Shown piece after piece: positions 40,999 to 41,454 of a DNA stretch of 64,000 nt. A model generated the notes under the pieces. The model was not told where the DNA came from, did not search any database, and saw only the letters and a list, made by a program, of their open reading frames with translations. Both the position numbers and the translations under genes were made by a program. Positions within the stretch are counted from its first letter, which is position 1. Each line of letters starts with the position of its first letter. Origin of the DNA: Escherichia phage AnYang; the sequence record MK234886. One strand, written 5' to 3'.

Positions 40999-41454
40999 TT
41001 ATTTTAGGTCTTCAGCCCAGTCGAGCTTCAAGGGTTCTTTATATTCTCTGTCTAAAACAACAGGAATCTGGACATCTCCACTAAAGGTAAGAGGTCCTAC
41101 ATTATAAGACAATGTGATATGAGGGGTGTAATCATCAAAATCGTGCGTAGCACCTAAGGTACGAGCATACTGGTGGCGGCATTTAAGATACTCTGAATTG
41201 AGAACCAATACCAGGACAGGAGAATCACCGTGTTTCCACACTTCAAGATGTCCTGACGAAGCAACTTCAAAACTTCCGGATGCAACGGTGTATGGAACGT
41301 TGACTCTTGAATAGCAGATTGTAGAATGGAATTTTTCACGAGGAACTGGATTAGGAACCTTTAAAGTGCGCTGAAGGTTTTCCAGCGCATCTAAAGTTAA
41401 TTCAGAGAATTTTGCAGCAACGTATAGACCTTGAGCAAAATCTTCGGTTTTCAT
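40999..41454 (-). CDS. 57B: 2H phosphoesterase 57B (anti-CBASS Acb1-like)
   Basis: 151 aa; two H-x-[ST]-x motifs (HSTI, HITL) typical of 2H phosphoesterases; synteny with 57A and gene 1. Confidence 0.75.

Follow-up and report, generated by a model that had tools for sequence, protein, structure and literature searches.

We identified the gene at 40999..41454 on the minus strand of the 64,000-nucleotide stretch of DNA analysed here (the window), which belongs to a Dhakavirus-group T-even phage, as acb1 (gene 57B), very probably encoding a functional orthologue of T4 Acb1 (gp57B), a small metal-independent 2H phosphoesterase. The finding is already known in kind, an anti-defence gene in its canonical place, correct but ordinary, and a sequence-only reading of the same DNA had rightly presented it as not novel, the enzyme having been characterised in T4. 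The gene and the parts of its product on which the argument turns are as follows.

40999..41454, minus strand: acb1 / gene 57B coding sequence, ATG start, 151 codons plus stop (ORF list, full-length Pfam match)
41317..41328, minus strand: first catalytic motif, H43-S44-T45-I46 (HSTI), equivalent to T4 H44/T46; H43 and T45 invariant in the alignment
41110..41121, minus strand: second catalytic motif, H112-I113-T114-L115 (HITL), equivalent to T4 H113/T115; H112 and T114 invariant in the alignment
41002..41025, minus strand: C-terminal lid, residues 144-151 (LDWAEDLK), corresponding to residues 145-152 of the published T4 protein and including the stacking W146 (T4 W147), placed by the T4 alignment

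Both the ORF list and the raw sequence show an intact gene with a full-length frame. Its product matched the Pfam family PF23474 (Acb1, anti-CBASS protein 1) with 197.9 bits against a gathering cutoff of 27 (E = 8.4e-59), residues 8-149 covering profile positions 1-144 of 144, and PHROG 755 with E = 2e-66; the best match among solved structures was PDB 7T26/7T27 (deposited as 'Acb1'), with E = 1.6e-58 over residues 9-148. A search of NCBIfam, a library aimed at bacterial and archaeal proteins, matched 0 families. Alignment to T4 57B (NP_049750.1), the check that the sequence-only reading had proposed, was free of gaps at 85% identity, and with the PF23474 score it upholds the placement of 57B among the 2H phosphoesterases of the Acb1 family. 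That reading had also stated that T4 57B degrades cyclic oligonucleotide immune signals, and NP_049750.1 is indeed the accession to which Hobbs et al. 2022 (PMC9117128) gave the name Acb1. The same protein, 100% identical, is encoded by phage MX01 (Dhakavirus mx01); 50 phage records hold proteins at least 95% identical to it, and about 755, mostly from Tequatrovirus, fall in the 80-90% band. MX01, IME08, JS98, JS10, WG01 and AND76087 were absent from the supplementary files of Hobbs et al., which may be incomplete.

The two catalytic motifs carry less weight than this whole-length similarity. A pattern scan of the entire protein found exactly 2 occurrences of H-x-[ST]-x, confirmed on the raw sequence, so the 151 aa protein with HSTI and HITL described from sequence stands verified, with the motifs at residues 43 and 112. 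The protein has 6 His and 21 Ser plus Thr, and at least two H-x-[ST] arose in 19% of its composition-preserving shuffles; the HxT motif pair alone is thus weak evidence, within chance, and it is whole-length homology that decides the identity of acb1. Homology likewise points to a compact 2H phosphoesterase fold for the protein. Single-sequence AlphaFold2 gave no usable model (mean pLDDT 38.4, pTM 0.28), and the predicted fold is accepted because the protein is 65% identical to a crystal structure (7T26) across 140 of its 151 residues.

Residue by residue, the comparison with characterised Acb1 proteins is close (window protein numbering is T4 numbering minus one). The active-site tetrad HxT/HxT of T4 Acb1 comprises H44, T46, H113 and T115, and the H44A/H113A mutant of the recombinant protein is catalytically dead (Hobbs et al. 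2022, PMC9117128); the bases of the ligand are stacked by the aromatics Y12, W74, F107 and W147, adenine N6 is contacted by E141 (PMC9117128), and a C-terminal lid of residues 145-152 shuts over the ligand (Hobbs et al. 2022, PMC9117128). All nine of the residues named as catalytic or ligand-contacting (Y11, H43, T45, W73, F106, H112, T114, E140 and W146) are identical to T4 in the window protein, and none of the 23 differences between the two proteins falls on them. The lid is present to the last residue with a single conservative change, E148 for D (LDWAEDLK against LDWADDLK in T4). We extended the alignment to Erwinia phage FBB1 Acb1 and to eight phage homologues at 27-62% identity, from Muldoonvirus, Krischvirus, Tulanevirus, Lazarusvirus, Schizotequatrovirus, Pseudotevenvirus, Slopekvirus and the jumbo phage SCTP-2; across 11 homologues of 27-85% identity the tetrad (H43, T45, H112, T114) and Y11 are invariant. 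Loss of the catalytic histidines, which the sequence-only reading had named as the observation that would tell against it, was not seen: opposite T4 H44 and H113 stand H43 and H112, both of them among the invariant positions. The FBB1 protein, solved apo at 1.1 A (7T26) and with 3'3'-cGAMP (7T27), is 65% identical over residues 9-148 and conserves both HxT motifs, Y11, E140 and W146, but has Phe at the W73 site, Tyr at the F106 site and, in the loop that follows, one residue more. Nine further Acb1 homologues in Hobbs et al. (PMC9117128) all cleaved cGAMP and cAAA, so that activity appears robust to divergence at the level seen here.

The names under which the family is filed suggest a different enzyme. 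Public records of 57B orthologues (e.g., NC_000866 T4p137 and KU878969 MX01_142) are behind the literature: T4 57B and many of its orthologues are called 'RNA ligase' in RefSeq and PHROG 755 carries the same label, others are 'hypothetical protein', one record reads 'putative RNA 2',3'-cyclic phosphodiesterase', and only one sampled record of a 57B orthologue notes similarity to anti-CBASS proteins. Read literally, the ligase and phosphodiesterase labels, a weak Pfam match to 2_5_RNA_ligase2 (E = 0.062) and the position of acb1 near the tRNA gene region would favour a LigT-type enzyme, either an RNA ligase or an RNA 2',3'-cyclic phosphodiesterase, that works on the ends of RNA (in tRNA repair, for instance) and not on immune signals, and the LigT / 2'-5' RNA ligase branch (PF13563) does resemble the window protein in its two H-x-T/S motifs and, presumably, its superfamily fold. 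We nevertheless regard such an enzyme as very unlikely, given that the PF13563 match reached 13.8 bits, far below the cutoff of 27, against 197.9 bits for Acb1, that the demonstrated substrates of the T4 orthologue are cyclic oligonucleotides and not RNA ends, that deletion of the T4 gene has no phenotype when CBASS is absent, and that every ligand-stacking residue specific to the binding of cyclic nucleotides is conserved. The score below the gathering cutoff therefore leaves the 'RNA ligase' label unsupported at the level of the family, and the name seems to have been carried over from the superfamily before the enzyme was characterised in 2022. A side activity of the acb1 product on RNA 2',3'-cyclic ends may exist.

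An Acb1 orthologue could still be a dead one, and a test of intactness is meaningful for this gene because it is naturally broken in some T-even relatives. Within the Tevenvirinae, acb1 carries a nonsense mutation in Bas43 and acquired inactivating mutations in Bas35 under Panoptes selection, and natural inactivation in relatives such as Bas43 shows that the gene is dispensable. T4 delta-acb1 shows a >300-fold plating defect on CBASS hosts and normal growth otherwise (Hobbs et al. 2022, PMC9117128), and an independent transposon-sequencing preprint found 57B to be dispensable where CBASS is absent and conditionally required where it is present. These null alleles and the non-essential nature of the gene are what would be expected if this copy were decaying or inactive, with acb1 being driven to loss by guard systems such as Panoptes, which penalise the depletion of cyclic nucleotides. 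The window copy, by contrast, keeps a full-length frame whose product covers the whole Pfam profile and retains every catalytic and ligand-contact residue, with no lesion of the Bas43 kind, and the identical protein in MX01, along with the 50 near-identical records, also speaks against decay. Nucleotide identity to T4 acb1 is 73%, against 85% for the protein, with pN = 0.13 and pS = 0.75 (0.746; synonymous sites saturated); the computed dN/dS of 0.036 is used qualitatively only, as a value well below 1, because of this saturation and is not to be taken literally. This pattern indicates that acb1 has been under strong purifying selection relative to T4, and we hold an inactive copy to be extremely improbable.

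Set beside T4 Acb1 as a whole, the product of the window gene is a near match (151 against 152 aa, aligned without gaps, with the same tetrad, stacking aromatics and adenine-reading Glu). Its 23 substitutions cluster in three places: the N-terminus (residues 2-8), residues 56-58 and the loop 75-80, which reads HGDSPV here and TQDGST in T4. By analogy with T4 and FBB1 Acb1, a cyclic di- or trinucleotide made by the host would have its bases stacked by the aromatics Y11, W73, F106 and W146 and its adenine N6 read by E140, and the C-terminal lid would shut over the bound ligand. Distortion of an adenosine would then set its 2'-OH to attack the neighbouring 3'-5' phosphodiester, the H43/T45/H112/T114 tetrad would provide acid-base catalysis, and a linear product would be released via a cyclic-phosphate intermediate. 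In this way 3'3'-cGAMP, cUA, cAAA and related signals would be destroyed before CBASS effectors fire, allowing the phage to escape abortive infection; for its activity, its range of substrates and its effect against CBASS we draw on the characterised orthologues. A substrate range differing from that of T4 Acb1, in which the Dhakavirus-type enzyme might cleave signals that are beyond T4 Acb1 (cGG, cUU, 3'2'-cGAMP), or might spare the decoy nucleotides by which guard systems of the Panoptes type are triggered, would be a long shot: its basis is only the position of the substitutions, in the loop 75-80 directly after the stacking W73 and at residues 56-58, and this loop varies in length among homologues, all of which had standard activity where tested so far.

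The genomic setting is that of T4, and the immediate neighbours of acb1 on its 5' side are listed below.

41677..42438, minus strand: gene 1, dNMP kinase (PHROG 139, E = 1.8e-58), same position in T4
41454..41684, minus strand: gene 57A, tail-fibre chaperone (PHROG 1002, E = 3.5e-26), immediately 5' of acb1, same position in T4
41452..41456, minus strand: TAATG junction, at which the 57A stop and the 57B start overlap by one base

Gene order on the minus strand (3, 1, 57A, 57B, two internal-protein genes, trna.4, trna.3 and trna.2) matches T4 and MX01, and the 3-1-57A-57B block is kept in all six of the more distant annotated phages compared (Muldoon, Phi1, 50AhydR13PP, Abraxas, RB16 and KLB25); the record of VH7D, also fetched for gene order, is without annotation. 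The sequence-only reading had placed 57B immediately upstream of 57A and gene 1 as in T4. Adjacency and the T4 arrangement hold, but the direction does not: because all three genes lie on the minus strand, 57B is at the 3' side and transcriptionally downstream of gene 1 and 57A, and it precedes them in plus-strand coordinates only. The position of 57B between 57A and internal-protein genes is shared with T4, where the neighbour is ipI, whereas here two other internal proteins stand next to it (their MX01 counterparts are annotated Ip9 and Ip7), and the stop/start overlap of 57A and 57B is 4 bases in T4 and 1 base here.

The TAATG overlap suggests that 57A and 57B may be co-transcribed and translationally coupled. 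The overlap itself, the historical gene name, and an adjacency to 57A kept in T4, MX01 and the further annotated phages would also suit a tail-fibre assembly accessory working with the chaperone gp57A. This role is barely credible: T4 delta-acb1 shows wild-type growth when CBASS is absent and 57B withstands transposon insertion, so virion assembly does not require the gene, and in fold and active site its product is a phosphoesterase. A scan for intrinsic terminators across 40300-43200 found none, and, read on the minus strand, the stem-loop 3' of 57B lacks a T-run. Sigma-70-type promoter scanning returned 12 sites against 8.8 expected from shuffles, and because promoter-like sites are not above shuffles, no consensus-based promoter is assignable to 57B itself.

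On its 3' side acb1 is followed by a PeSL-like element and by the internal-protein genes.

40941..40985, minus strand: PeSL-like early promoter plus stem-loop (TTTACA, 16-nt spacer, TACTAT, upstream TG), immediately 3' of acb1
40699-40920, minus strand: internal-protein gene, 73 aa, capsid-targeting N-terminus
40425-40697, minus strand: internal-protein gene, 90 aa, capsid-targeting N-terminus
40376-40422, 36591-36616 and 31113-31138, minus strand: further PeSL-like copies (GTTTACA pattern)

The element at 40941-40985 separates the 57B unit from the internal-protein cassette. Its promoter boxes agree with TTTACW N17 TAYWAT, the consensus published for T4/PST PeSL elements, and its stem-loop is of 10 bp (z = -4.15; z = -2.86 in the 40376-40422 copy). 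The arrangement of GTTTACA, a spacer of 16-17 nt and TGATACTATAGNCCTATCAAAACAA occurs in four copies in the window, all on the minus strand, with none expected by chance; the copies at 40941-40985 and 40376-40422 stand on either side of the two-gene internal-protein cassette and share 87% identity along some 70 nt. The authors who described PeSL elements proposed that they drive plasticity and cassette shuffling of internal-protein loci, and an indel of about 210 bases by which close relatives differ in the 40300-41700 stretch is consistent with such plasticity.

The internal-protein pair matched PHROG 8765 ('internal virion protein', E = 1.8e-24) and PHROG 7673 ('internal head protein', E = 3.5e-56) and has the N-termini MKAYQEFITEA and MKTYQEFIAES. 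These two ORFs lie immediately 3' of 57B, and the sequence-only reading was right to locate 57B in the same locus as the CTS proteins. The N-terminal CTS of T4-type internal proteins is of the MKTYQEFIAE type and ends in an (L/I)-x-E cleavage site. A pattern scan returned eight CTS-type ORFs in the window that begin with MKTYQEFI[AT]E or a variant of it, all on the minus strand.

25807-28402, minus strand: CTS-type ORFs, five-gene cluster
36695-37303, minus strand: CTS-type ORF, single 202-aa gene, by N-terminus pattern
40425-40920, minus strand: CTS-type ORF pair beside acb1, by N-terminus pattern

The acb1 product was itself considered as a packaged CTS protein and rejected: its N-terminus, MKTEDF, is loosely like MKTYQEF, but an (L/I)-x-E cleavage site is missing, the T4 protein starts MMEFKDF, and acb1 is not among the eight ORFs of the scan. 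Judged by its N-terminus, the acb1 product is a neighbour of the CTS proteins and not one of them.

Several further observations were made in the window and around the family. A second gene for an anti-CBASS protein is present, and it is listed here together with two other genes of interest.

24339-24617, minus strand: Acb2 (vs.4) homologue, 92 aa (Pfam Acb2_Tad1_hairpin, 58.7 bits against a cutoff of 27; 64% identical to T4 vs.4)
22237-22704, minus strand: macro-domain protein (Pfam Macro, E = 9.5e-8), in the T4 tk.4 position and adjoining thymidine kinase
38306-38971, minus strand: segB-like GIY-YIG homing endonuclease gene, between tRNA-Arg (38226-38300) and tRNA-Met (39013-39083)

Both anti-CBASS genes, for the nuclease Acb1 and the sponge Acb2, therefore occur in this phage, about 17 kb apart. 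Acb2 (T4 Vs.4) resembles Acb1 in being a T-even anti-CBASS protein that removes the same signals, but its fold and mechanism are unrelated, for Acb2 sequesters signals and Acb1 cleaves them. Macro domains can reverse ADP-ribosylation, and the gene at 22237-22704 is possibly another counter-defence gene. The tRNA-Arg and tRNA-Met genes beside the homing endonuclease are the only two tRNAs found in 34000-42000, against eight in the equivalent region of T4. Outside the window, the portal protein gp3 of cyanophage Pam3 (PDB 8HDS chain A) ends in a clear Acb1-family domain of the 2H type, formed by its last 120 or so residues (about 493-616) and carrying the two HxT motifs. This domain scored 93.7 bits with Pfam Acb1, against a cutoff of 27, and E = 5.6e-9 with a family profile, and the Pam3 structure paper makes no mention of it.

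For the phage, acb1 would be the mark of equipment to evade CBASS systems that use adenosine-containing signals, and with the Acb2 homologue it would make up the same dual anti-CBASS arsenal as in T4, which has been reported to encode both Acb1 and Acb2. The value of the finding is in annotation only, and the correct name is worth propagating over 'hypothetical protein' and 'RNA ligase'. The same gene also predicts that the phage may be sensitive to guard systems such as Panoptes, which fire on the depletion of cyclic nucleotides.
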